A stretch of 64,000 bases of DNA from the NCBI GenBank assembly GCA_023205875.1, contig CP060762.1:558001-622000 (forward strand), read 5' to 3'. Source of the stretch: Chloropicon primus. Taxonomy: Eukaryota. This document shows positions 4,558 to 37,246 of the stretch, one piece after another. Each line of letters begins with the position of its first letter. Within the stretch, counting starts at the first letter, position 1. The position numbers and the translations under genes were made by a program. Under the pieces are notes generated by a model, which made no database searches, was not told the DNA's origin, and was given only the letters and a program-made list of their open reading frames with translations.

Positions 4558-5598
4558 TTGCTTGTGGCGCTCGCCTTCCTCGTGTGGGGGCGACGGAGTC
4601 CGAGGCCGGCGACGACGGGGGCGAGATCCGTGCACCTGGCGAGGGTCCAGGCGACGCCGAGGGTCCAGGCGACGACTCTGCCGCGCGGGAATGGGACGCA
4701 TCGACTCGCGGACGGCTGCCACCACGTGTTCCTGGACGTCGGGGCGAACATTGGGATCCACACCCGGTTCCTGTTCGAGCCTTCGCTGTACCCGGACGCG
4801 AGCTTGTCGACGGCGATTTTCGAGTCCCAGTTCGGCAGCGGCCGGGACAACAGGGACTTTTGCGCGTTCGGTTTCGAGCCCAATCCCGCTCACGCGGACA
4901 GGCACCGGGAGCTGGAGGCGATGTACGGCGCCATGGGCTGGAGGTACACACCCGTGCTCGCGGCGGCGGGGAACAAGGAGGGGGCACTGACCTTTTACCA
5001 CAACGCCAAAGGCGCCGGGAGCGAGGAGTGGGGGTTCTCCTCCTCGCTCCACGCGGATCCCAAGGACGTGATCGCGGAGGAAGTCCCGGTCGTCCACCTG
5101 GCCCGCTGGATCGAGAGGGAGATCATGGGGTGGAAGCTCCCGGCCCGCGTTTACGGCAAGTACGAGGGGGATCCCGGCCCCAAGGTCGTGATGAAGATGG
5201 ACGTGGAGGGGCAAGAGTACTACCTCCTTCCCAGCCTGCTTGCCACCGGGGTCATGTGCAAGGGGGTCGACTTTGTCTTCGGGGAGCACCACGCCCGCTT
5301 CTTCCGGTCGCACCAGAGCGGCACGGATTTTGACGCGCGAGGGGACCTGGACCGCTTCGACATCGACAAGCAGGCGTGGTCCTGGCACACCGCGTACGAG
5401 AAGATCTTCGGAGACCTGAAATTCAAGAAGTACCCCAAGGGAGAGCTCGTGGTGGAGTCGGAAGAGGACGCCTGGCGGATATTCGACTTGCTGGTGACGA
5501 TGATGATGTCCACAACCGAAGAGGATTGCAAGACGACCTTTCTCATGGCCGACGACGAGAGCTACCTCCACGATGGCGCCCCCTGGCCCGCCCCATGA
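4558..5598 (+). CDS. FkbM-like SAM-dependent methyltransferase with N-terminal hydrophobic anchor; start codon unresolved
   Basis: VFLDVGANIG, FGFEPNP and VVMKMDVEGQEY motifs. No in-frame ATG before the SAM motif. Confidence 0.65.
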   Translation: MLVALAFLVWGRRSPRPATTGARSVHLARVQATPRVQATTLPRGNGTHRLADGCHHVFLDVGANIGIHTRFLFEPSLYPDASLSTAIFESQFGSGRDNRDFCAFGFEPNPAHADRHRELEAMYGAMGWRYTPVLAAAGNKEGALTFYHNAKGAGSEEWGFSSSLHADPKDVIAEEVPVVHLARWIEREIMGWKLPARVYGKYEGDPGPKVVMKMDVEGQEYYLLPSLLATGVMCKGVDFVFGEHHARFFRSHQSGTDFDARGDLDRFDIDKQAWSWHTAYEKIFGDLKFKKYPKGELVVESEEDAWRIFDLLVTMMMSTTEEDCKTTFLMADDESYLHDGAPWPAP

Positions 5599-5769: not shown

Positions 5770-7188
5770 TTACAAATAAACAGTGTCCACCTCGCAATTC
5801 CCAAGTCTTGTGTCGCTTCCGCTGAACTCCTTCCAAAACGTGCTGTGGCCAAAAGCAACGATCACTTTCTGGGGCTGTTCCAGGACCCACTGGCGGAAGA
5901 GTCCCACCCGCTTCTGCAGGTTCTTCTTTGGCTCCCTGCTCTCGAACTTCATCTCTATCGCACAATTTTTGTTGGGCTGCCACCACCACCGCTCCTCCAG
6001 CGCCTCCTCCAGTGCTTCCTTCAAGTTTGGAAAGTCCTTGACGAGGTGAGACTTGGGCCTGCCGATGTCCCCGGTCGTGGCAAGGTGCTCCGCCATCAGG
6101 CTGCAGATGGCGACCTTGCCGTCGAGCGCGGAAGGCAGGGCGCCAAGGAGGGTCTGGATGCACCTCGTGAGTGGCGAGGCAACGAAAAGCACGGGGCTTG
6201 AGCCATCCTGGCCGCTGAGACGCCCAAGGGAAACCACGGAAGAAGGGCAGGGACGTCAGTTGTGGCTGATCAGCGAGCGCCGAAAGAGGTCAAACTCCTT
6301 ACCTTTGGGGCAATTTTTCAAGCAGCGTCGGCCTCAGGCTCGCCGCCTGCTGCTTGCCCAAGTCAGTGAGGGCCGCATCAAACACAAAGGGATCCTCAAG
6401 ACTCCTCGAGTACCGATCCAAGGCGTTGTACACGCTCTCCCCGTGCCTGACTATGATGACCTTCTTGCGGTCACATTTCTGAAGATGTAGGGCGTCTTCA
6501 TCACAGAATCCGAGAGGTTGGCGCCCGCGCCTTGGCCACTGGACGAGGGAACCCCGCACTGTATCTCCCCGCACCTTCCTGTCACCGGTGGTGTCGTGTC
6601 ATTGTAGACGGCCTCCTGTTGCGGGCCGTTCACTCTCTCGGGAGTCGCCTCCTCCGCGGTCGACTGCGGCTCGTCGTGGCTCCTCTCGTAGTTCTGCGAG
6701 CAGTGAATGACGAAGCCGTCGTCCTCATCCATCGCCGGGCCCCGCTCTTCCTCCTCGACCTTTGCGGGGGTGCGGCGGAACCTCAGTTTTCTCAACGAGG
6801 GCAGCGCCAGGGGAGAAGCCAGTGACGCCCCCGCGGAGGAGGTCCCTTCCTTCAGGGGAGTCTCAAAGTATGCCCCACCGCCATCTTTGCTTTCGTTCTC
6901 AAGCTGCCTCAGGAAAAACTCTCCAGCTTGCCAAAGGAGGGCGAAAGAAGGACAACCCTTGCGTCAGCACAACACAACACCTTTGGCCCTCCCAGCTGAG
7001 AACAACAGCAACAACAACAAAAAGCAGAAGAGCTTTGGCATACACTTACCTCTCACGCAGGAGCTCCTCCTCCGCTGGCTCTTCGTCTCCAAGCCAGTCC
7101 TTCTGTCGACGTTCTCTTGGTGGTTGAAGGTGTCCACGCCGTCGCACTTGTCCTCGAGGGATTCCCTCGGCCTCTTCGTGCTCGCCAT
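5770..7188 (-). CDS. Histidine phosphatase/phosphoglycerate mutase family protein; multi-exon, with a frame break near 6465
   Basis: VIIVRHGES, DAALTDLGKQQA, SPLTRCIQT and FGHS...LGNCE motifs. Introns at ~7049-6927 and 6302-6215. Confidence 0.75.
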
Positions 7189-7614: not shown

Positions 7615-7884
7615 GGCTGAGAAGTTGGTGGAGAGGGCGAGCTTCCTTGGCGAAGTGAGGACGGAAGAGGGAGGGAGTCGTGCGGGGGACGACGCACAAC
7701 GAAAGAACGCCTCTCGGTCTTTCGAACGAGCCGTCGGTCGACGCGTTTGGTGCCCGGTGTGGTGCGGGAGGTAGGAAGAAGGGCGGAGGGAGGAAGGGCT
7801 GAGAAGTTGGTGGAGAGGGCGAGCTTCCTTGGCGAAGTGAGGACGGAAGAGGGAGGGAGTCGTGCGGAGGACGACGCACAACGA
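7615..7884. repeat. 88-bp direct repeat (7615-7702 and 7797-7884)
   Basis: Near-identical copies; the second ends on the ATG of the next gene. Confidence 0.9.
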
Positions 7885-9827
7885 TGTTGAGATGGTTTAG
7901 AAGTCCCTCCAAGGACGGGAAGAAGCCCGAGGAAGGGAAGAGGCACAAGGTTCACCTGGGGGAGTCAAAAAATAAGTTTTATTTCGATGAGAAGCTGAAG
8001 AGGTGGAGAGTGGAGGGGGAGGAGGAGGGGGAGGAGGAGGAGGCGGGCCCTCCGTCTCCGCCCAAGATGTCGGCAGCGGCGGTGGCTTTCGGAGCCCCTG
8101 GAGGAGGTTTTTCTCACGGCAACGGGGCGCAGAGCGAGGGCATCTCGAGCGAGGGCGGTGGACTGAACTGGTCCGCGGCGAATCCGAACCAGGATCTGAG
8201 CCGATCCATGACTAGCAACGACACCCAGCGATCTTCAGCCAACGTGCGGAGGAACATTCGCTCGAGGTACGTGGATGCTTTTGGCAACCAGTCCGTCGAC
8301 TCCGCGGTCGCCGGTGCGGCGACCACGAAGAAGGCACCGCTGCTTCCCTTTGCTCCCGTTCCAAGCACTGGCGGCGGTTTGAACGGGAGTCACGCCACGG
8401 CAAGCGTCTCCATGTTTGTTCCGAGTCAAGTTGGGGACGAGGACGCCCAACAAGCGGGTGGTTATGCGAGCTTTCAGCCCTCGGATCCTTGGACGGAGAC
8501 CAAGGCGGCAGTCCAGCAACCCCAGCAGGAGGGGGAGCAGGAGGCGGAGTCTTCGCCCCCTGATCCACCGGGAGTCGCACAGCAGGCTCCCCTCGAGGGC
8601 GTTGGTGATCCTCTCACCTTGCACGAGAGCGTGCAGAGTGCCCCGTACTACCAGGACCAGGGCTTCGACTTTGGTCCTCGTGGGGACGTGGCGCCAGAGT
8701 CCGAGTGGGAACCTCAGTACGACATGTCACACGGCGTGGCAGTGCCTCAGCAAACTGCGCACCACAACGATTGGCACGAAGAAGGAGGACATGGCGATCG
8801 TTGCGGTAACTCGGAAGAAGCGACGCTGGAGGGGGGGTACGAGGTGGTGGATGGGGAGACGCGGGCGCAGGGGGAGCAGGACGATTTCGCCCACCTGATG
8901 CAGCAGACGAAAGCGGAAGAATTCGAAGGTCCCCTCACTCCGGGGGATTACGAATCTTCAGAGGGGTCGCGGGAGGCCGCCGGCCGACACAACGGCGACG
9001 ACGTGGGGCTGCCTGTGGCCGAGCAGCACGTCGTCCCTCCAGGCCGCACAGACGTCGATCATTCAGCGGATTGTTCGGGCGAGCTGCCGCGGCAGCCGTC
9101 TCTGGACGTCTACCTCCACAGCCCATCCTCCGGGGTGCAGGAAGCGTCTCCGCTGCAACAGCAGAGGCCGGAGGAGGATTGGCCCCCTTCTGAGAAATCG
9201 CCGGACACCGCCAGCGCGGGAACGAGGGGATCCCAGCACGCGCCTGGATCTTCAGACCGGGGGCACACGCCTCCCGAGAAGACGACTCTCAACGGCGATC
9301 CGGCAGCGATCGCCCGGGACCCCTACATCGTCGAGGGGGTGATCCGCAGCCTGGTCTGCGAGAACCAAGTCTTCAGGGACAAGGTGAAGTCCCTCGAGGA
9401 GGAAGCGAGCGCGCAAAAGGCGGAGCAGGTCGAGCTCAAACTCCAGCTGCACTGCCTGGAGTCGGACATGAACGACCTGCTGGTGTGCTTGGGCCAAGAG
9501 TCGTCCAAGGTGAGTAAGCTCGTGGGGGCCCTGAACGAGCTCGGAGTCGACGGCGGTGAGATGCTCCGGGAGGCCGAGGAGGCGATCCTGGCCCACCCGG
9601 GGGAATCTGGGGTGGCGCAGGAGGAAGTGGAGGGCAAGGGGGACAAGGGGGACGACGACGAAGCGAGCTCCACTTCGTCCTCCCTTTTCTGCGACGAGTC
9701 GGAGGCGGCGATGAGCCCCCCGCCCGCTCCTCCTGGCGGGCACGAGGACGAGGACGAGGAGAGCGTCTACGAGACGGAGGAGGCGGATTACAGCATGCCC
9801 ACCCTCCGCAACTCGATCCACCTGTAA
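7884..9827 (+). CDS. Largely disordered protein with a Sec16-C-terminus-like N-terminal motif and a Uso1/p115-like C-terminal coiled coil
   Basis: LGESKNKFYFDEKLKRWRVEG...PPSPP and RSRYVD at the N-terminus; MNDLLVCLGQESSKVSKL...LGVD plus an acidic tail at the C-terminus. Confidence 0.7.
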   Translation: MLRWFRSPSKDGKKPEEGKRHKVHLGESKNKFYFDEKLKRWRVEGEEEGEEEEAGPPSPPKMSAAAVAFGAPGGGFSHGNGAQSEGISSEGGGLNWSAANPNQDLSRSMTSNDTQRSSANVRRNIRSRYVDAFGNQSVDSAVAGAATTKKAPLLPFAPVPSTGGGLNGSHATASVSMFVPSQVGDEDAQQAGGYASFQPSDPWTETKAAVQQPQQEGEQEAESSPPDPPGVAQQAPLEGVGDPLTLHESVQSAPYYQDQGFDFGPRGDVAPESEWEPQYDMSHGVAVPQQTAHHNDWHEEGGHGDRCGNSEEATLEGGYEVVDGETRAQGEQDDFAHLMQQTKAEEFEGPLTPGDYESSEGSREAAGRHNGDDVGLPVAEQHVVPPGRTDVDHSADCSGELPRQPSLDVYLHSPSSGVQEASPLQQQRPEEDWPPSEKSPDTASAGTRGSQHAPGSSDRGHTPPEKTTLNGDPAAIARDPYIVEGVIRSLVCENQVFRDKVKSLEEEASAQKAEQVELKLQLHCLESDMNDLLVCLGQESSKVSKLVGALNELGVDGGEMLREAEEAILAHPGESGVAQEEVEGKGDKGDDDEASSTSSSLFCDESEAAMSPPPAPPGGHEDEDEESVYETEEADYSMPTLRNSIHL

Positions 9828-9885: not shown

Positions 9886-9910
9886 GAGAGAGAGAGAGAG
9901 AGAGAGAGAG
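9886..9910. repeat. (GA)n microsatellite
   Basis: Read directly from the sequence. Confidence 0.9.
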
Positions 9911-10151
9911 TTCCACCCAATCATCCGCTTCCTTCTGCTGTCCCCCCCCTCCCTGCCGTCCTCGTTTGGCATACCCCCTGCTGCTGAAAACGGATGATTG
10001 ATGGGACCCCTCCCCCCCTCCTGCCCCCTTCTGGGTGCCACCCTGGCCTTTGACTCCTCGTGATTGATTGGGACACATTGGGGTCCCTCCATCCCCTCCC
10101 TCCATCCCCTCCCCTCCATCCCCTCCCCTCCATCCCCGCTGCGCTGGTAAG

Positions 10152-10607
10152 ATGTCGATTGTGTTGCACTCCGAACGACGGCGCGCCTTGTCGTCGTTTC
10201 ATTCGAACGCTGCGGAGTCGCCTTCCGTGTGTAGCGGTCGGAGCGACTATACTTTGACGGTTGAGCCGTGTCCTCACGGGACTTTTGTTGCGTTGGTGAC
10301 GTCCGTGTCCCTGCTCGCACACATCCTCGGCGCTTCTCTCTGCTGGTGGCACCCTGCCGTTTCCCACGTGGCGTTTGGCGTGAGCGTTTTCCTCCACCTC
10401 GTCCTGAACGCGTACAATTTTTCTCTGCGGACTCAAGATGCGCGGTTTTCGTTTCTTCTGTCCTCTTGCTTACTTTTGAGTATGGTTTCATTCATGATTT
10501 GCGCGTTGACTTCTACAGGCGCGACTGTTTCCATCGTGTTTCATATACTTTTGATCATGCTGAACATGGTTCTTTTGATACATAATCCTAATGAGTACGT
10601 CCAATAG
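10152..10607 (+). CDS. Hypothetical membrane protein with ~4 TM segments
   Basis: 151-aa ATG-initiated ORF with four hydrophobic stretches. Confidence 0.45.
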   Translation: MSIVLHSERRRALSSFHSNAAESPSVCSGRSDYTLTVEPCPHGTFVALVTSVSLLAHILGASLCWWHPAVSHVAFGVSVFLHLVLNAYNFSLRTQDARFSFLLSSCLLLSMVSFMICALTSTGATVSIVFHILLIMLNMVLLIHNPNEYVQ

Positions 10608-10786
10608 AGTGGAGACAGCCGCAGGGTCCTGAAGACGGATACGACGTCACCGTCCTTGGCAGCACTTGCATCTTCTTCCTCTGTCACGGCCAAGGTCGAA
10701 AATTTCGTACTACGACGACCGCGGTTTCGCGCTCCTTCACCACCGCTCCATTCGACGGACATTGCTAATGGCCTGTTTCGGATGCT

Positions 10787-11005
10787 TTATATACGTTCTC
10801 TCAATTGCTTTTGGGCCGATTCCATGCACAACGCGAACGTGACTTTGTTGTGTTTATACTTGGTTCTCGACAGTATAAAATCGAGGTAAGGGTGTTCATC
10901 CATGATGAAGCGTCCCAAGGGGTCATCGGGGACATGATACACAAGCCAATCGACGAGGTCTTCGTCCCGCACGATCTTCACGATTTCATCAAAAGGAGTC
11001 GACAT
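10787..11005 (-). CDS. Small hypothetical protein (72 aa)
   Basis: ATG-initiated ORF with protein-like composition inside the island; no recognised family. Confidence 0.35.
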   Translation of the reverse strand: MSTPFDEIVKIVRDEDLVDWLVYHVPDDPLGRFIMDEHPYLDFILSRTKYKHNKVTFALCMESAQKQLRERI

Positions 11006-11507
11006 CGCTCAATTGAATGGATCAGAAAGAGAAACGAAACAAACGATACAATTCATCTTACAGAAACAAACGGGGGGCCCATCCGGTCAGTCACGCGCCC
11101 GTTGTCGCCGAGTCGCCTCGATTGTACGGATGCGCCATGAGGTGAGCGCGCTTAGCACTGACGATGCAACCACGCAGAGCGCAAGTACCCGCGTTTCGAT
11201 GGATAAACCTTCAAGGTGCTCGAAAACGAAGTCGTAAGGCGAGTGGTCGACTGCTGATATTCCTTCAATGACTTGAGGGGGCTGAATGATGTTGTGTCCT
11301 TCATTCTCCGCCGAAAAGAATGGTGTTTCTTCGAGGACTTTCATTGTTGCATTGATGTAGTACAGTGTGCACGTCAAATGATAATGTGGGTGAAAACAAA
11401 CACGGAGGTAAAAACTGTCCCGGTTTTAAAAAAATCGTCATTTTTTTGTTTTCTGCAGCGCACCGCCGCTTCGCAATGGCCGCATCACCGCGTTCGAGGT
11501 GCGCGTC

Positions 11508-14500
11508 ATGGCGTCGGACGCGCCGCCGAGCAAACGCCGCCGTGTCGACGACTACGACGTGCCGTCTCCGATCGGCGCGTCCAAGGCCGAGACACGTCAC
11601 GTCGCGCATGTGGCGCAGCTGTTGTTTGAGAACGGCTTGCTTGAGCAGGGCGTGACCGGGCGCTCGCTCGCGAAGCACCTGACGGAAGGCAAGACCCACC
11701 ACAACACCGATGCGTTCTTCAAGCTCACGAATGGCACGGAAGTGCTGTTCGAGTACGACCCGGGCTTCACGCACGGCGACTCCGACGTGGGACGCGACCA
11801 ACGCAAGACGACCAAGCTCCGCGAAATGTTCCCTGACGCGTTCGTGGTCCGCTTGCGCGTGGGCGCCGCACACTTCGAGCAGCTTTCGCAGTGGGGGGAC
11901 AACGTGCTCGTCGTCGTCACCGAGTCGCAATTACCGAACGTTGCCGCGTCAGCTGCTGTGACCGCCGTCGCGCAGCGCATCCATCAAGGCGGTGCTGCAG
12001 CGACCAAGGCGTGCCCGAGCAGCAACCATGACAACGCCGCCGCCAACGATGCCGCCGCGGACGTGTGGGCGCGCATGAGCAAGGAGTTTGAAGCCGCCGA
12101 GCAGCGCGTCGCGACGCTCGTGGGTGGTGATCTCGACCTGGCGCGAAAGCTCATGGCCACCCCCGGAGTGCCTTCGCGTGTCCTGACGGGAGCCTTCGAG
12201 AAAAGCATCAAAGGGTTGCAAGATCCCAAGTTCGGCATAACCAACTTGGGCACGTTTGTCTGCGGCGGCGTCGCTGCAAAGTTCGACGATCCGGAGAAAC
12301 TCTTTGACATCCTCACGGCGCTCAAGACGCGCTTCGGCATCAAGAGTCTCCAGACCTTTGTTTCAGACAGCGTTGCGGCGAGGTTTGACGATCCCGACGC
12401 GCTCTACGCCGTGCTCGACACTTTGAGGACGCGCTTCGGCATCAAGAGTCTCCAAACCTTTGTTTCAGACAGCGTTGCGGCGAGGTTTGACGATCCCGCA
12501 GCGCTCTACGCCGTGCTCGACACTTTGAGGACGCGCTTCGGCATCAAGAGTCTCCAAACCTTTGTTTCAGACAGCGTTGCGGCGAGGTTTGACGATCCCG
12601 CAGCGCTCTACGCCGTGCTCGACACTTTGAGGACGCGCTTCGGCATCAAGAGTCTCCAAACCTTTGTTTCAGACAGCGTTGCGGCGAGGTTTGACGATCC
12701 CGCAGCGCTCTACGCCGTGCTCGACACTTTGAGGACGCGCTTCGGCATCAAGAGTCTCCAAACCTTTGTTTCAGACAGCGTTGCGGCGAGGTTTGACGAT
12801 CCCGCAGCGCTCTACGCCGTGCTCGACACTTTGAGGACGCGCTTCGGCATCAAGAGTCTCCAAACCTTTGTTTCAGGAGGCGTTGCGGCGAAGTTTGACG
12901 ATCCCGACGCGCTCTACGCCGTGCTCGACACGCTGAGGACGCGCTTCGGTATCAAGAGTCTCCAGACCTTCGTTTGTGGTGGCGTTGCGGCGAAGTTTGA
13001 CGATCCCGACGCGCTCTACGCCGTGCTCGACACGCTGAGGACGCGCTTCGGCATCAAGAGTCTCCAGACCTTCGTTTGTGACAGCGTTGCGGCGAAGTTT
13101 GACGATCCCGACGCGCTCTACGCCGTGCTCAACACTTTGAGGACGCGCTTCGGCATCAAGAGTCTCCAGACCTTCGTTTGTGATGGCGTTGCGGCGAAGT
13201 TTGACGATCCCGACGCGCTCTACGCCGTGCTCGACACGCTGAGGACGCGCTTCGGTATCAAGAGTCTCCAGACCTTCGTTTGTGGTGGCGTTGCGGCGAG
13301 GTTTGACGATCCCGACGCGCTCTACGCCGTGCTCGACACGCTGAGGACGCGCTTCGGTATCAAGAGTCTCCAGACCTTCGTTTGTGGTGGCGTTGCGGCG
13401 AGGTCTGACGATCCCGACGCGCTCTACGCCGTGCTCGACACGCTGAGGACGCGCTTCGGTATCAAGAGTCTCCAGACCTTCGTTTGTGGTGGCGTTGCGG
13501 CGAAGTTTGACGATCCCGACGCGCTCTACGCCGTGCTCGACACGCTGAGGACGCGCTTCGGTATCAAGAGTCTCCAGACCTTCGTTTGTGATGGCGTTGC
13601 GGCGAAGTTTGACGATCCCGACGCGCTCTACGCCGTGCTCGACACTTTGAGGACGCGCTTCGGTATCAAGAGTCTCCAGACCTTCGTTTGTGGTGGCGTT
13701 GCGGCGAGGTTTGACGATCCCGAGGCACTCTACGCCGTGCTCGACACTTTGAGGACACGCTTCGGCATCAAGAGTCTCCAGACCTTTGTTTCAGACAGCG
13801 TTGCGGCGAGGTTTGACGATCCCGCAGCGCTCTACGCCGTGCTCGATACTTTGAGGACGCGCTTCGGCATCAAGAGTCTCCAGACCTTTGTTTCAGACAG
13901 CGTTGCGGCGAGGTTTGACGATCCCGCAGCGCTCTACGCCGTGCTGGACACTTTGAGGACGCGCTTTGGCATCAAGAGTCTCCAAACCTTTGTTTCAGGA
14001 GGCGTTGCGGCGAGGTTTGACGATCCCGCAGCGCTCTACGCCGTGCTGGACACTTTGAGGACGCGCTTCGGTATCACCTTTGTGAATAACAGCGTTGCGG
14101 CGAAGTTCGACGATCCCGACGCGCTCTACGCCGTGCTCGACACGCTGAGGACGCGCTTCGGTATCAAGAATCTCCAGACCTTTGTTTGCAATAGCGTTGC
14201 GGCGAAGTTCGACGATCCCGAGGCACTTTACGCCGTGCTTGAAGAGCTCGAGCAGATGGTCGGCAAAGGCGGCGTGCTGATAGCGGGTTCGAACGCCTTC
14301 GCGTCGCGCATGTTGAAGCCTGGGTTTGTGGACGCGGTAGTCGCATGCGGGGACGCTCTGTCGGTCCTGGGATTGGATCCCGTCAAAGAGTTGCGGACCG
14401 TGTTAAACAAGGAGAACGCGAAGTTGATGAACATGATCGGCACGCTCGCCGCCAAGCTGAAGGCGTGCAGCGACGAGGGCGCAGCGCACCAGCTGCTTGT

Positions 14501-14558
14501 TTCGCTGCGGAACAAGAAAAGGAAACACGAGGCCATGATTGCCATGATTGATGCATGA
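11508..14558 (+). CDS. Vsr/DUF559-like endonuclease fused to a 20 x 34-aa TALE-like repeat array
   Basis: NLS PPSKRRR; S-x-x-E...D...EYDPGFTH...RDQRKT..L...VVRLR nuclease-type motif; 102-bp tandem repeats; C-terminal RNKKRKH. Confidence 0.8.
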   Translation: MASDAPPSKRRRVDDYDVPSPIGASKAETRHVAHVAQLLFENGLLEQGVTGRSLAKHLTEGKTHHNTDAFFKLTNGTEVLFEYDPGFTHGDSDVGRDQRKTTKLREMFPDAFVVRLRVGAAHFEQLSQWGDNVLVVVTESQLPNVAASAAVTAVAQRIHQGGAAATKACPSSNHDNAAANDAAADVWARMSKEFEAAEQRVATLVGGDLDLARKLMATPGVPSRVLTGAFEKSIKGLQDPKFGITNLGTFVCGGVAAKFDDPEKLFDILTALKTRFGIKSLQTFVSDSVAARFDDPDALYAVLDTLRTRFGIKSLQTFVSDSVAARFDDPAALYAVLDTLRTRFGIKSLQTFVSDSVAARFDDPAALYAVLDTLRTRFGIKSLQTFVSDSVAARFDDPAALYAVLDTLRTRFGIKSLQTFVSDSVAARFDDPAALYAVLDTLRTRFGIKSLQTFVSGGVAAKFDDPDALYAVLDTLRTRFGIKSLQTFVCGGVAAKFDDPDALYAVLDTLRTRFGIKSLQTFVCDSVAAKFDDPDALYAVLNTLRTRFGIKSLQTFVCDGVAAKFDDPDALYAVLDTLRTRFGIKSLQTFVCGGVAARFDDPDALYAVLDTLRTRFGIKSLQTFVCGGVAARSDDPDALYAVLDTLRTRFGIKSLQTFVCGGVAAKFDDPDALYAVLDTLRTRFGIKSLQTFVCDGVAAKFDDPDALYAVLDTLRTRFGIKSLQTFVCGGVAARFDDPEALYAVLDTLRTRFGIKSLQTFVSDSVAARFDDPAALYAVLDTLRTRFGIKSLQTFVSDSVAARFDDPAALYAVLDTLRTRFGIKSLQTFVSGGVAARFDDPAALYAVLDTLRTRFGITFVNNSVAAKFDDPDALYAVLDTLRTRFGIKNLQTFVCNSVAAKFDDPEALYAVLEELEQMVGKGGVLIAGSNAFASRMLKPGFVDAVVACGDALSVLGLDPVKELRTVLNKENAKLMNMIGTLAAKLKACSDEGAAHQLLVSLRNKKRKHEAMIAMIDA
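12246..14273 (+). repeat. Coding tandem array of 20 x 102-bp units (one with a 12-bp deletion)
   Basis: Consensus LQTFV-xxx-VAA[R/K]FDDP[D/A/E]ALYAVLDTLRTRFGIKS. Variable triplets start at 12261, 12363, 12465 and so on up to 14187. Confidence 0.97.
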
Positions 14559-15433
14559 CACCCCCCTCTTCTGGTGTTTGGAAGCCCTGGAGGGGGCGTG
14601 TTATTCGTGAGTTGCTTGAGGAATGGGTCGCACTCGCTCTCTCACCCTCATTTGATGCCCGCTCACGCACATACATAGGCGGATGGGATTCGTCCTTACG
14701 CATTTTGGCAATGTTTGACATGCCCGACCATCTTGAGAAGATGGTCAAGGTTGGCGTCTCGTATGCGTTGGAAGCCGCCCACGAAAGCGTGGACCGTTGC
14801 AGCTACGACTGCCTTCGTGTGCTGTTGAAGTTCGGTAATATTGAGCTCGACTCCGGTCTCGATGGGGACGATGAGTGGACGCTTGTTCTGAGGGCTGTCA
14901 TCAACGATCACCCCAACTGTCTTCGAATTCTTCTTGAACATGGCGCTGATCCGAACGTCCAAATTGACGGTTTATCCCCTATTCACGAAGCTGCGGAGAG
15001 GGGCCACGTCGAGTGTCTTCGTTTGCTCGTCGCTTACGGTGCCGAAAAGGACTCTCTCTTGGAGAGTGGTGACATGACCCCTCTGCAATTCTGCGTCCGC
15101 GGCGGCCATATCGAATGCTTGCGTTTTCTGCTTGACGTCGGAGCGTCGCCGGACATTGCGAACGTGGACGGCACCACACCCATTATTTATGCGGCTGCGG
15201 AGAACCAAGTCGAGTGCTTGCGCATGCTTCTCGAGTCCGGTGCGGACAAGGACAGGGCAAACGGCGCAGGTTTGACGCCCGTGCAGCATGCTCGAGATCA
15301 TGGTCATGCCAGGTGCCTCAAGCTTTTGCTTGAGGCCGGAGCAACGCTGCCGGGGGCCCTAACGGGGGCCCTGACGGCCCCCGAACCCCCACGCTTGCAG
15401 CGGGGGTTGGAAGGGGGCTTGCCCCCTCCGTGA
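14555..15433 (+). CDS. Ankyrin-repeat protein (~5-6 repeats)
   Basis: SPIHEAAERGHVECLRLLVAYGA, TPLQFCVRGGHIECLRFLLDVGA, TPIIYAAAENQVECLRMLLESGA. True start may be a later Met. Confidence 0.85.
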   Translation: MTPPSSGVWKPWRGRVIRELLEEWVALALSPSFDARSRTYIGGWDSSLRILAMFDMPDHLEKMVKVGVSYALEAAHESVDRCSYDCLRVLLKFGNIELDSGLDGDDEWTLVLRAVINDHPNCLRILLEHGADPNVQIDGLSPIHEAAERGHVECLRLLVAYGAEKDSLLESGDMTPLQFCVRGGHIECLRFLLDVGASPDIANVDGTTPIIYAAAENQVECLRMLLESGADKDRANGAGLTPVQHARDHGHARCLKLLLEAGATLPGALTGALTAPEPPRLQRGLEGGLPPP

Positions 15434-15586
15434 GTGGAAAAGCTTCCCCGAGCCCCCACGCATTGAACTGCGCTACGAGTCAGTTTGTGTCGTGTGGCTC
15501 TTTCGTAAACCGTACAAACCCACGGGAGACTCGTTCAAAATGCGTCTAACCCTAATTAGCCCCCCGGCGCCGGCGCCGGCAGCACG

Positions 15587-16374
15587 TCCGTGACTTGGTT
15601 TACTCTCTCTACGCCGGCTTGTGCTCAGCGTTTTACGTCATTCCCCCGCCCGGGTCATCGGACAGCTTCACCTGCCTCTTTCAGGGCCGGGACATCGATG
15701 GGGGCCGGGGGGTCAGAGCAACGCTGAGCGGTGCGAGCGATGGCATGATTGAGTTGCTCCGGGAGGACTTTGGGTTGGAGCCTGTTGTGTGTGGCTTGGG
15801 GGAGAGGGGGAAGAGAATCGCAGACAAGCTGAAGATGGCCGGCGGGGATGGGCACAAGGTCCTTCTGTTCCTTGGGAGGGAGCAGGTTCACGGGCTCTTT
15901 GACTTTTTGATCACCACCTGTGGCAAAACGTATCACAAGCAGAGAGATGTGCCGACCCTGTTGGCCCCCGTGCCCTTTGAGGGCTCAAGCGTGAAGCGTT
16001 ACGCTGGGGTGTACAGGAAGAACACTCTTCTGAAACACAAGCACGAGAGGGGGCTTCAAACCTTCACCTTAACCTTTCAGGACGACGGAGGTCTCTTCCT
16101 GCCTCCCTGGGTGGTCGATCGGCTCTGCACAACCTTTCGCAAGACCCAAAGTTCCTTCTCGATGACCAGTGATTCGGGGGTCGACTTCAAAACAACGTCG
16201 TTGCAGTGTGGTGGTGGCGAGGACGGCAACAACAACGAGGACGTGAACGAGCGTGGAGAGGAAAGGTCGGAGTATGGAGGCGGGTTCTGGGATACGGAAG
16301 AGTGCGACAAGTGGCAGGAACGAGGAGGCAACATTGCGAACCTTCAGTGCGAGAAAGGTGTGTTTGTAATTTAG
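15587..16374 (+). pseudogene. DONSON: 5'-truncated DONSON-like coding sequence (C-terminal half)
   Basis: LVYSLYAGLCSAFYV..FTCLF, LLFLGREQVHGLFDFLI and DVPTLLAPVPFEG resemble conserved DONSON blocks. No N-terminal half or upstream start was found. Confidence 0.65.
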
Positions 16375-16391
16375 GCTTTCGTGTGTGCATT

Positions 16392-16769
16392 TCACAACGC
16401 GGTCTTCCAGGTCTTGCTGAACATGGCGAGGGTGCTTGGAAAGAGCTCGACCATGACTTCAGGGCTGCTCCCTCGCTGCAAGCACTCCTCGAGCAAGTAA
16501 AGCTCCTCGAGAAGGGTCCGGACAGCTTTGGCAGACTTCATCAGCTTTGGTTGGATCTCCCCCAATTCCCCCAGAAGGAACTGGTGCGTGCAAGCCGGGT
16601 CCCTGAATTCGTTTTGGAGGTTCACGAGCTCCTCCATCTCCCTCGCCAGCCCTTTGATCCTCTCCTCCACTGTCCTGGCCCCTGGACTGAGATTCGCGTT
16701 CCCGGCGCCCCGTTTCATCTTCCCTCTCCTGTACGCGGTGTACCTCGCGCTCATGGAATCCCCCTTCAT
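16392..16769 (-). CDS. Small coiled-coil hypothetical protein
   Basis: 125-aa ORF with host-like codon style and a helical heptad pattern. Confidence 0.5.
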   Translation of the reverse strand: MKGDSMSARYTAYRRGKMKRGAGNANLSPGARTVEERIKGLAREMEELVNLQNEFRDPACTHQFLLGELGEIQPKLMKSAKAVRTLLEELYLLEECLQRGSSPEVMVELFPSTLAMFSKTWKTAL

Positions 16770-17053
16770 GTAGACATCGCCGTTGGCCTCTGACCTGGCC
16801 TCTGGGGCTGACGTGGATGACGAGCATTACTATTAATACAAGGGAGGCTCGAGACACGACGAGGCAGACGACTCAAAGCCGGGACAGACAAGGCCAGCGG
16901 GGGAAAACAAACGAAAGAGAGCACACAGAGCGAAGCTACGTCTCGCGGGCTTTCGAGCGGTGGGTCGCTTGTGTTGTGCGTCGTCCTGTGGAGTGCGTAA
17001 GGTCACCGGCAAGTCCGAGGGTTTTTCTTCTTTGGGACACTCAGAGTGGGATC

Positions 17054-18334
17054 ATGAACATGTTGGCAGCTGCGAGGGGATGGCAGTGCACAGGCGCGTC
17101 CATCGCGTGCCGAGGGGCGAGAACCTTTGCCGTGTCGGCGACGCCAAAGGAGAGCGTGGTGCCGGAGGGCTCCGAGTCCGACGGCCAGCCCGGCACGTTT
17201 TACGCTCGCGACCTGGAGATCAAGGTGGACTCGCCTGAGAACATCAAGCCGCTTCCGGAGGACTTGACGGAGTTGAGCTTCGGCAAGGACTTCTCCCCTC
17301 ACGTCTTCAAGGTGTGCTGGAGCGCCGCCAAGGGCTGGGGCACGCCCAAGGTCAAGCCGTTCGAAAGCTTGAGCATTCACCCTGCCGCTCCGGTGATCCA
17401 CTACGGCGTGGGCTGCTTCGAGGGGATGAAGGCGTACGCGAGCGAGTCCGAGGAGGGGGACATCTTGCTCTTCCGACCGGACATGAACTTGAAGCGATTC
17501 AACTTCTCCATGTCCAGGTTGAGCTTGCCTGCCTTTGACGAGAAGGAGTTTCTGGGCTGCCTCAAGCGCATGCTCCAGGTGGACAAGGACCACGTCCCTA
17601 GAGCTCCCGGTTATTCTTTGTACCTCAGGCCGTTCGCGGCGGGAACGACGGCTACCCTGGGAGTGGCGCCGCCCGCGGACTGCGAGATCAACGTCATAGC
17701 CTGCCCGGTGGGACCCTACTATGCCGGAGGCTTGGTCCCTATTGACGTCCTTTTGGACGAGGACCACGTGAGGGCGTTTCCTGGGGGGACGGGCCAGTAC
17801 AAGGTGGGGGGAAACTACGCGCCAACTCTTCAGCACCTTCAACGGGCGTCCAAGGAGTTCGACTGCAAGCAGGTGCTGTACACCCTGCCTGGGCAGGAAG
17901 CGAGCACCCTGAACGAGAGGTACGTGGCGGAGTGCGGGGCGATGAACATGTTCTTCCTGCTCGAGAACGGGGCCTCGGGGGAAAGAGAGCTCGTGACGCC
18001 GCCACTCGACGGGACCATCCTCGCTGGTGTGACCAGGGACACCATCCTCCAGCTCTGCGGGGAGTGGGATGACTTCAAAGTTTCGGAGAGGATGATTTCA
18101 GTCCGGGAGATTGAGGAGCATGCCAGCGAGGGAAACCTGGTGGAGGTCTTCGGCTCCGGAACCGCCTGCATTATTCAGCCCATCAAGTGTCTTGTCAAGG
18201 ACAACGGGGCCAGGATCAACGTGAGAGAGAACACAGGGGAAGACAAGCTTTCGGACAAGATTTACAAGGCCATCACAGACATTCAGTATGGTCGTGTCAA
18301 GCACCGTTGGTCCGAGAGCATCTACGCCCCTTGA
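17054..18334 (+). CDS. BCAT: Branched-chain amino acid aminotransferase, organelle-targeted
   Basis: HYGVGCFEGMKAY, LFRPDMN, SLYLRP, YKVGGNY (PLP lysine), ECGAMN, ILAGVTRD, EVFGSGTA. Confidence 0.95.
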   Translation: MNMLAAARGWQCTGASIACRGARTFAVSATPKESVVPEGSESDGQPGTFYARDLEIKVDSPENIKPLPEDLTELSFGKDFSPHVFKVCWSAAKGWGTPKVKPFESLSIHPAAPVIHYGVGCFEGMKAYASESEEGDILLFRPDMNLKRFNFSMSRLSLPAFDEKEFLGCLKRMLQVDKDHVPRAPGYSLYLRPFAAGTTATLGVAPPADCEINVIACPVGPYYAGGLVPIDVLLDEDHVRAFPGGTGQYKVGGNYAPTLQHLQRASKEFDCKQVLYTLPGQEASTLNERYVAECGAMNMFFLLENGASGERELVTPPLDGTILAGVTRDTILQLCGEWDDFKVSERMISVREIEEHASEGNLVEVFGSGTACIIQPIKCLVKDNGARINVRENTGEDKLSDKIYKAITDIQYGRVKHRWSESIYAP

Positions 18335-35453: not shown

Positions 35454-37246
35454 TCACTGCAGCTGGTAGACGCAGCGCTGCTGCCTCCTATTTCCTGCCG
35501 CCAGTGTCCTGGTGTGCAAGCGGTGCAGCAGCATTGGAATCGGATTACCGGCCCTGAGGTCGTAGGACTCGAAATTTGGTGTCATATAAAACATTCCCGC
35601 AACACACTCGCCGTGAATCACCTCGAGCGTGTCCAAGTGCTGCGGCTCCGCTGCATCCCCCTTGCTTTCCCCTTGGAGCATGTCTCTTCTCACCCCTCCC
35701 TTGCTGATCAGGAAGTTGACCCTGTCCCTAAACTTCTTTCCGCTCCTGCGTAGTGCTCTCCTCCATCTCGGCAACTTTTGCCTCCACTTGATGCCAGAGA
35801 ACCCATTCGAAACGTAGCCCAAACCCAAGAGGGGGTAGTTTCGGTGACTCAAGAGGGACTCGTCGCTCGCTTCGAAGACGGAGGCGTTGAGCAGAGGCTT
35901 TCCCATGTTCGTCATCCCGAATGTGCCAAGCTGAATGCTGGTCCTCTTGCCGTACTTGTCCGGTGGCGCTACGACCATCAGGTCCACCGCGTCTTCCTGC
36001 CCTAGCAGCTCCGAGGACAACGACTGCGGAACGGAGCCAAAAGAAGCGAACCTCCCAAGGTTGAAGACGTCATATTCTCGCGGGATCATCGACTCGTGAC
36101 CACCATCCGGCTTCTGAAAATCGAAGACGAACTCCGCCCCGACCCTTACGTACTCTTTCTGGCACCTCAGCAAGTGCTTTCTCACTCCTCGGACCGCCGC
36201 GATGCAGGCGTCCTGGGCCTTCACCAAAGCAGGCATCTTCCAGCCAGTGCCGCTGGTTTGCTCCATGTCGACTGTGCCATGCTTCGGCTCATGGAACAAG
36301 ACTCTTGGCAGCGGTATTCCAAACAAACCCTCGTATAGAACGTCTGAACCCTCCAGCTTCTCGAAGGCTTCCTTGAGCACCGCTTCGGCGCTCCCGCCCT
36401 TTTTCCCTCCCAGAGCGTCAATGATGCTCCTCTTCCACTCCCTGTAGGCAATGGGCTTGGTCGTGGTCGCGCACACCGCCAGACCAAGGTCTCCGGCGTG
36501 GTCCAGGACGTAGTCCTTGGGCCCCGTGGCCCCTCCAGAGCCCGCGTTGTAGAGGGCAGTGGGGTTGCACTTCCCCCGCCCGAACTCTTTGCTAATTTCT
36601 CGTGACGTCGCTTCCGGATCGCACCACAGCGCCACCGACACGCACCCGTCCTTGAACAAGTTTGCTCCCACGCACTCCCTCCGCTTTCCCTTGCTGGTGC
36701 GCTGGAGAACCCTCTTGGACATTTCATCACTGCTCCAAGCAGCTTCGTCCTCCGTCGTGCTCATGGACGTGAACGAGCCCAGACCGCCGCCCTTCTTCCC
36801 GATGGATGACTTCCCGAGGAGTGCCTCCTCGAACGTCGCATCCTCCTCCGTCCCGCCGAACCAATCCGTCCACAGGAGGTCCTCGGCGCTCAGCTGCGAG
36901 CTGCAAAACAAAACAAAACAAAAACAAAACAAAACAAAAACGTTCTTTAGTTCAGTTTCCTTCCATGCACGCTTCACCGAAAGAGAGAGCCGAGTCGTAA
37001 CGTGTCGTGAAGATTCCCCTCGTCCAACGAAGCGTCCCGCAGCTCCGCTTCCCTCCCTCCCACTCCCTCTGCAACTCAACCTTACCTGTACAAGGACCTC
37101 GTGTCCCAGAGGTCTTCCTGCTCGGCAGTCATCGTCTCCGTCGTGTCAAACCTTGCAATGTTGGTACCATTCGAATGAAAAACATCTTGTGAGTGTTGTG
37201 CCATCCCTTCCGCCTCGCTTCGTCCCTCCTCGCCCGCCGTAGCCAT
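35454..37246 (-). CDS. Hypothetical protein; 2 exons (intron ~37085-36901)
   Basis: Long ORF joined in frame to an upstream ATG exon through GTAAGG...TTTTGCAG. Confidence 0.7.

Follow-up and report, generated by a model that had tools for sequence, protein, structure and literature searches.

A likely giant-virus fragment in the chromosome of Chloropicon primus encodes a predicted nuclease with TALE-related repeats

A stretch of 64,000 nucleotides from the picoplanktonic green alga Chloropicon primus (GenBank assembly GCA_023205875.1, contig CP060762.1, positions 558,001 to 622,000 of the forward strand; hereafter the window, whose numbering is used throughout) contains an island of foreign appearance, the core of which is a virus-like, multi-copy unit of approximately 5.0 kb (10595..15590). 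The unit was delimited by contig forks and loose ends in the public runs X1, X2, X4, X5 and X7 and by a second copy of its ankyrin gene. Its main gene, as translated, is an open reading frame (ORF) of 1016 residues (P0001; 11508-14558, +). The protein begins with a basic motif like a nuclear localisation signal (NLS) and a domain of the Vsr/EDxHD nuclease type (residues ~17-165; 11508..12005, +), recognised by conservation, a model and residue mapping. These are followed by a helical linker, by twenty tandem repeats related to those of transcription activator-like effectors (TALEs; 12231..14258, +), detected by tandem-repeat analysis and family-profile homology, and by a helical C-terminal cap that is conserved in the family alignment and carries a second NLS-like motif (14259..14558, +). 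The stop codon of this ORF overlaps the first ATG of an ankyrin-repeat ORF of 292 residues (14555..15433, +; Pfam Ank_4, E 3e-39). A first-pass annotation, made from the letters alone, had described both genes, short orphan ORFs among them and a Uso1-like host gene upstream, all of which are present. We hold, at a probability of roughly 0.6, that the island is a giant-virus fragment lodged in the alga and that the product of its main gene is a predicted nuclease of the Vsr/EDxHD type joined to TALE-related repeats, a natural enzyme resembling a TALE nuclease (TALEN) in which each repeat would likely read one base.

The assignment of the N-terminal domain of ~150 residues to the Vsr/EDxHD type is well supported by conserved residues and by a predicted structure. 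The candidate catalytic or conserved residues of P0001 are E28, D68, E82, D84, H89, D97 and K100. In 83 aligned family sequences, chosen for their coverage of the N-terminal part, D84, H89, D97 and K100 are found in 83/83, D68 in 81/83 and E28 in 71/83, with 11 gaps at the last position. The E-D-x-H-D catalytic pattern is accordingly present in P0001 (E28, D68, D84, H89, D97), and it was matched to the active sites of Vsr (E25/D51/H64/H69/D97) and I-Bth0305I (E170/D196/N208/H213/D222) as these are given in part of PMC3239194. The Pfam family REase_MTES_1575 is matched by 3 of the 83 members. A confident AlphaFold2 model was obtained for a close relative, P0013, which is 84% identical to P0001 over residues 15-275 (pLDDT 90.8; predicted template-modelling score, pTM, 0.84). 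Its N-terminal domain resembles PD-(D/E)XK and Vsr folds at a VIA Z of 6-8; Vsr itself (1cw0) scores Z 6.0 with a root-mean-square deviation of 3.3 over 99 aligned residues, and Can2, Card1 and Bax1 score Z 6.3-8.0, middling values that are backed by the residue pattern. The domain would thus be expected to have nuclease activity. NLS-like motifs at either end of the protein occur in 38/66 members and in 5/25 neighbour ORFs (p 0.002; shuffled mean 9.5), and this enrichment points to the nucleus as the site of action. The ESM Atlas labelled the whole protein DUF559/PvuRts1I-like (0.77) and the repeats TAL_effector (0.77), and these labels were taken as leads only.

According to parts of PMC3239194 and to PDB entry 1cw0, the EDxHD homing endonucleases such as I-Bth0305I, and the Vsr/DUF559 nucleases, have in common with this family the E...D...x...H...D pattern on a PD-(D/E)XK-like core, and the EDxHD enzymes are likewise found as free-standing genes in changing neighbourhoods. 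In contrast to them, the nuclease is N-terminal here, the DNA-binding part is a TALE-related array and the gene does not lie in an intron; homing and dimer formation are putative.

The same repeats also occur behind another N-terminal domain, in a sister class that comprises P0012, P0030, P0055, P0057, P0073, P0099 and P0106; two of these, P0030 (two near-identical copies) and P0057, come from Tribonema minus. The motifs of this other domain make it look like uracil-DNA glycosylase (UDG), and the class could be a natural repeat-guided glycosylase. It may then be asked whether P0001 is a nuclear effector, steered by its repeats, that acts mainly on modified or mismatched bases in a Vsr-like or UDG-like manner and is not a selfish cutter. 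The UDG-like motifs that we presume in P0012, P0030, P0055, P0057 and P0073, along with the enriched NLS-like motifs, would fit this role. Nevertheless, the UDG label has no Pfam support, the active site of P0001 fits EDxHD homing nucleases as well as it fits Vsr, and the neighbours of family members vary from locus to locus. We regard a repair effector as very unlikely.

The array of P0001 consists of 19 units of 34 residues and one of 30, and the variable loop residue over the twenty repeats is D in 10, G in 8 and N in 2. Within 17 consecutive units, changes are frequent at unit positions 11-13, 17 and 22, and the variable residues switch in linked blocks, as expected from repeat conversion. 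In the family as a whole, the repeats are spaced by 33-35 residues in 229/319 intervals. In 429 units from 154 proteins, with 5 near-duplicates dropped, the central variable column contains D (156), N (132), G (117) and S (9), and the next residue is G (243) or S (170). This variable residue aligns with TALE position 13, which, as stated in part of PMC4787788, sets base specificity in all TALE-likes tested.

Homology to TALE repeats is indicated by profile searches of the PDB. With profile A3, the first 12 of 18 matches are TALE entries (best E 1.5e-16), and with profile A4 the same is true of the first 5 of 31 (best E 1.2e-12), while mTERF entries are absent from both sets. RAP-domain proteins are among the weak profile matches. 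In addition, a single member, P0034, matches dTale2 (E 2.2e-26; individual stretches reach 2e-10) and keeps the register at the variable pair. This protein of 678 residues from an ENA metagenome retains the full TALE-style variable pair in its repeats and is the clearest bridge to TALEs; it aligns with P0001 through both nuclease and repeats (E 6e-25). The repeats of the family are therefore homologous to TALE repeats, the link for P0001 passing through the profiles and P0034. The first-pass annotation had recognised a nuclease-repeat gene, a description that stands, and had missed this kinship.

Parts of PMC4787788 and PMC11417379 allow a comparison with TAL effectors and TALE-likes such as PthXo1 (3ugm), Hax3, dTale2 (4hpz), BurrH/Bat1 (4cj9), MOrTL1/2 and STAR. 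Both groups have helical tandem repeats of 33-35 residues with detectable sequence homology, a hypervariable loop position (D, N, G or S) that aligns with the base-specifying residue, and NLS-like motifs. TAL effectors, however, are bacterial, whereas the algal and viral family is fused to a natural N-terminal nuclease. Moreover, a residue is missing ahead of the variable site in most family members, the residue that follows this site alternates between G and S, each unit of the family model comprises three helices, and regions for secretion or activation are not evident.

Several observations weigh against a TALE-like reading of these repeats. P0001 by itself has no PDB or Pfam TALE match, and its type of repeat lacks one residue before the variable site, so that the full 12-13 pair is not found; because of this gap, the proteins are better seen as a related family than as canonical TALEs. 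Isoleucine (I), with which TALEs usually read A, does not belong to the frequent residues of the variable column. D, N or G fills this column in 405/429 units, but this alphabet is favoured by the D/G/N motifs used to seed the unit profile. Whole-protein E-values are inflated for repeat proteins, and the best single stretch for A4 reaches 0.047. The P0013 model has three helices per repeat in a short-short-long order. Structural comparison gives mTERF proteins Z 8.3, 7.6 and 6.6, against 7.2, 5.9 and 5.6 for BurrH and TALEs, all of which are middling for helical repeats. Foldseek returned no match at E<=0.001, and mTERF stands above TALEs among its weak rows. Pfam mTERF is matched by 4/83 members, although not by P0001, and the full-length model is poor (pTM 0.36), with matches to generic solenoids only. 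Pfam and PHROG matches on the repeats were dismissed as repeat artefacts, being sums of short matches.

These points bear on a different account, in which the origin is equally viral and the repeats act like mTERF or OPR/RAP-type arrays, with limited or non-modular binding of DNA or RNA and no code of one base per repeat. The three-helix units, the Z of 6.3-8.3 for mTERF4 (the highest, at 8.3), mTERF1 and mTERF3, the few Pfam mTERF and weak RAP matches, and the linked blocks of change in P0001 would agree with it. Against it, the sequence profiles find TALEs and no mTERF, P0034 is plainly TALE-like, and distant members, whose repeats measure 33-38 residues, show the same small set of letters again and again at a single position. 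In the structural comparison, BurrH and mTERF4 are in a near tie. For mTERF/pTERF (PDB 3n6s, 4fzv), parts of PMC11417379 describe three-helix units in a nucleic-acid-binding solenoid, a resemblance reflected in the similar structural scores, whereas the repeats of the present family are near-identical with one variable loop, are fused to a nuclease and are favoured as TALEs by the profiles. We consider mTERF-like action doubtful, although it is the most serious of the alternatives. From profiles and models, we conclude that the family is TALE-homologous with a predicted mTERF-like geometry and is not a canonical TALE.

In searches for relatives of P0001, a word-based approach found 10, and a 6-sequence profile found 297 clusters at E<=0.001, of which 150 lie at E<=1e-10, so that the family has at least 297 clusters. 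A metagenome scan yielded 45 loci in 31 non-redundant groups, and Pfam was run on 74 neighbour ORFs picked from 23 of them. The neighbours include PolB, RuvC, FNIP, metacaspase and rhodopsin genes (L020/L021), both ribonucleotide reductase subunits (L025), and a capping enzyme, Erv1 and a helicase (L026), and ankyrin genes adjoin family members at L004 and L036. Among the named members are proteins of Emiliania huxleyi virus 84 and of a Megaviridae sample, and the top full-length viral matches in BFVD have E 1e-12 to 1e-9. Pattern scans, which do not imply absence, gave no confirmed family locus in GTDB genomes or INPHARED phages. Thus, the suggestion of an endogenised viral fragment made in the first pass is upheld by the giant-virus genes beside relatives of the nuclease-repeat gene, and the island is likely a giant-virus-derived fragment in the chromosome of the alga. 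The evidence from viral relatives applies to the nuclease-repeat gene and not to the ankyrin gene or the small ORFs; a search with the N-terminal part of the ankyrin protein matched the second C. primus copy and four generic ankyrins only.

Other results speak against a viral source. No capsid gene is present among the 74 neighbour ORFs, and pattern scans of IMG/VR (P0002, A2, A5) gave no confirmed locus, although absence is not implied. A quickly built tree of 69 nuclease domains places P0001 in a clade of 12 rows (SH-aLRT 99) that contains no row of known viral context, and the 11 rows with such context are scattered over the rest of the tree. The viral origin of this copy is likely, although it has no close viral sister in this tree. 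An empty site was found neither in the alga nor in viruses; in the latter, a search by flank genes returned a best relative 46% identical for one flank gene and none for the other, with no close sister genomes.

According to the ORF list and Pfam, the island contains no capsid, PolB or packaging ATPase ORF and, in view of these missing hallmark virus genes, it would be a fragment and not a provirus. The giant endogenous viral elements of algae similarly combine a giant-virus-type gene of foreign codon and CpG signature with an adjoining ankyrin gene in an algal chromosome. By contrast, the present island measures only ~5 kb, has no hallmark gene, exists in several partial copies and is joined to a duplicated host segment.

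Some of the viral loci have features of their own. Paralogue pairs are present at L020 (1468-2687, -, and 5083-6813, +), where one member is intact beside RuvC and the other is split across two frames, and at L009, which has two arrays. In the flanks of L004, L008, L029 and L036, long tandem arrays of a different repeat adjoin the nuclease genes in high-GC virus-like contigs. Since array lengths in short-read assemblies may be collapsed, differences in arrays among close relatives were not taken as proof of reprogramming.

The composition of the island sets it apart from the host. AGR accounts for 5/39 arginine codons in four island ORF parts and for 513/830 in 21 host ORFs (Fisher p 9e-10), and the ratio of observed to expected CpG is 1.3-1.5 across ~10250-14200, compared with 0.88 +/- 0.18 elsewhere in the window. 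Of the codon bias described in the first pass, the low use of AGR is therefore borne out, whereas ACG use is host-like. More AT-rich stretches had also been ascribed to the island, but overall it is not richer in AT: GC content is 0.577, against 0.582 in the host, and dips (to 0.49) only at 10500-11500. In a 4-mer log-odds profile, the island begins near 10140 and ends at 15400-15600. The island is real, but its foreign composition begins near 10140 and not at 9911, as first drawn; 9911-10140 is host-like.

The structure of the unit and its copies was studied by aligning contigs from six public runs (X1, X2, X4, X5, X7 and X8) to the locus. Other copies diverge before 10595 (X2), after 14928 (X2, X4, X5) and after 15590 (X5, X7), and so the shared unit spans ~10595-15590, with at least one shorter copy. 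A second ankyrin copy, QDZ24808.1, is annotated on a 589-kb contig, while this locus lies on a contig of 781 kb. Immediately to the right is a duplicated host segment of 1.2 kb (15587..16785), which has four bases in common with the end of the viral unit (15587-15590). In a 2768-nt contig of X4 (contig 14), other sequence flanks exactly 15587-16785 on both sides, and the contigs of X2 and X5 fork at 16785. The segment has a host-like composition and consists of the 3' parts of two convergent genes, 15595-16374 (+) and 16392-16769 (-), the second of which has no assigned family. The first is putatively DONSON-like by motif likeness; Pfam and PDB searches did not confirm the label. The loose ends of the X4 contig, judged by eye, extend both broken reading frames. 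What had looked like a DONSON gene broken by the insert is therefore a copied 3' fragment of a gene, the full version of which is probably intact elsewhere.

At the ends of the island, no terminal inverted repeats (5-8/30 matches at four tested end pairs) and no target duplication were found, and no transposase, integrase or replicase ORF was found inside it, in agreement with the first-pass remark that no transposase was recognisable. No contig joint that skips the island was seen in the six runs, a result that does not prove the absence of an empty allele. Contigs cover the nuclease-repeat gene in X4, X5 and X7, runs guessed to be RNA; for X4, this is suggested by a host gene in which 88 bases are skipped in the manner of an intron.

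A closely related gene is also known from elsewhere, since P0003, from another eukaryote data set, is 91% identical and has other neighbours. Residues 1-1000 of the P0003 model fuse upstream ORFs, among them one for a flavin amine oxidase (Pfam E 8e-24), and another stretch may resemble a Ulp1-type protease. The P0003 locus may represent a virus-like insert of larger size in another organism.

A further explanation, raised in the first pass as a new mobile element, is that the 5-kb unit moves autonomously in algae and that its repeat nuclease chooses and opens the insertion site. The several genomic copies, the occurrence of P0003 among different neighbours, the contig cover in presumed RNA runs and the immediate clade without viral-context rows would be expected of such an element. 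However, its copies end at differing places, inverted repeats, target duplication and a gene for transposition, integration or replication are missing, and the genes of distant relatives stand by themselves among viral ones. In addition, the best match to the array under the TALE code near the island is only 14/20, so that nuclease-guided insertion, as had been proposed, is unsupported here. Apart from the further copies, little of the mobile-element proposal is retained, and we judge an autonomous element unlikely. Ragged copies of this kind, without the marks of transposition, would fit capture and copying during break repair.

Finally, the island might be an artefact in which a viral or contaminant contig was joined into the algal chromosome. 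Contigs break at the left (GA)n repeat and no listed piece spans 15590 with at least 31 bases on each side, so that neither junction is formally bridged. Nevertheless, two GenBank assemblies annotate one protein that joins the ankyrin ORF to the downstream ORF across the right junction, and contigs 13 and 14 of X5 overlap by 30 bases over it. Runs of four studies contain the island, and a seawater metagenome has pieces of island and flank with 0-1 differences. Given the annotations that cross the junction and the near-identical metagenome pieces, a chimeric assembly is extremely unlikely.

On the left, the island is preceded by a host gene for a Uso1/p115-like C-terminal coiled coil (7884..9827, +; Pfam PF04871, E 1.3e-7; in a cluster with C. 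primus QDZ23124.1). It is followed by a (GA)n microsatellite and a C-rich low-complexity stretch (9886..10140), identified with Tandem Repeats Finder, that is host-like, has negative 4-mer log-odds (island versus host) to ~10100 and probably lies outside the foreign DNA. Next is a weakly foreign stretch (10140..10594, +), defined by composition and found at this locus only: its exact sequence is absent from the cluster collection and another copy diverges before 10595. It holds most of a hydrophobic ORF of 151 residues (10152-10607, +), which had been described as having four transmembrane segments. Hydropathy shows three hydrophobic peaks, no family was matched, tblastn gave no match in the 45 family loci, and contig cover is zero in four runs guessed to be RNA; for these reasons, it was not counted as a gene. 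On the right, the duplicated segment is followed by a host gene like branched-chain aminotransferases (16817..18334, +; Pfam Aminotran_4, E 8.5e-20). Like the left flanking protein, the ankyrin and downstream ORFs cluster with C. primus proteins. The view that all genes of the island are intronless is not secure for the ankyrin ORF because two public models (P0160 and P0176) start at 14711 and splice at 15431, although no spliced contig across it was seen among those of the six runs.

Some side observations concern the wider window. An FkbM-type methyltransferase ORF (4558-5598, +) has low AGR use, with 2/9 arginine codons in a 225-residue part, unlike most host genes, and may be another acquired gene. 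A short telomere-like CCCTAA motif lies at 15546-15560, within the viral unit and 35 bases from its right end; with 8 such hexamers in the window, this may be chance. At 6475, 11072, 11428 and 15768, single-base indels or substitutions distinguish the window from contigs of several runs, and the window may therefore hold small assembly errors; for instance, the insertion behind 6475 in X1 and X4 would shift the frame of a putative phosphoglycerate-mutase-like gene.

If the giant-virus nuclease works as its parts suggest, the array would wrap double-stranded DNA and each loop residue would pick a base, with D specifying C, G specifying T and N a purine, provided that the TALE code holds. The N-terminal domain would nick or cut beside the 5' end of the site, and shuffling of repeats would retarget it. 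Under this code, the algal array has a pyrimidine-rich 20-mer as its predicted target. The best site in the window (17/20 at 35656, inside a host gene) was not used, as it had no shuffle control and a hand estimate puts it within chance for pyrimidine-rich DNA. In the virus, the enzyme may act in the nucleus, either as a free-standing selfish nuclease of the homing type or to attack the DNA of the host or of rivals. The algal gene would be a passenger that break repair captured and copied along with the 1.2-kb host segment, and not a self-moving transposon. Engineered TALENs (TALE-FokI) likewise combine a modular repeat array with a nuclease of restriction fold, whereas this family is natural, its Vsr-type domain is N-terminal in place of a C-terminal FokI, and cutting is predicted.

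The literature searches returned no account of giant viruses with TALE-like repeats or of a TALE-nuclease fusion in nature, although the supplement of PMC11417379 may list members, and none of viral inserts in Chloropicon that match this family. In the literature consulted, TALE-like repeats are bacterial, apart from one fungal assembly, and carry no nuclease fusion, and the passages of the C. primus genome paper (PMC6731263) that mention diploidy and IS605-like genes do not describe the island element. The family is thus a new combination of two known kinds, TALE-like repeats and a Vsr/EDxHD nuclease. A broader proposal, to which we would give even odds, is that giant viruses of algae encode a widespread natural TALEN family with a compact one-residue code and a Vsr-type nuclease or glycosylase-like fusion, retargeted by shuffling to attack host or rival nuclear DNA.

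If the interpretation is true, these would be the first viral relatives of TALEs and might connect mTERF with TALE repeats in evolution, and the nuclease-fused viral family, with its 297 or more clusters, would widen the origin of TALEs. The family would provide a new scaffold that is programmable and has a different loop, as well as a test of kinship between mTERF-like and TALE-like solenoids, for which the algal copy is a good substrate because its array of 20 repeats is the longest among those counted. Giant viruses, in turn, would gain a rewritable tool for targeting DNA.

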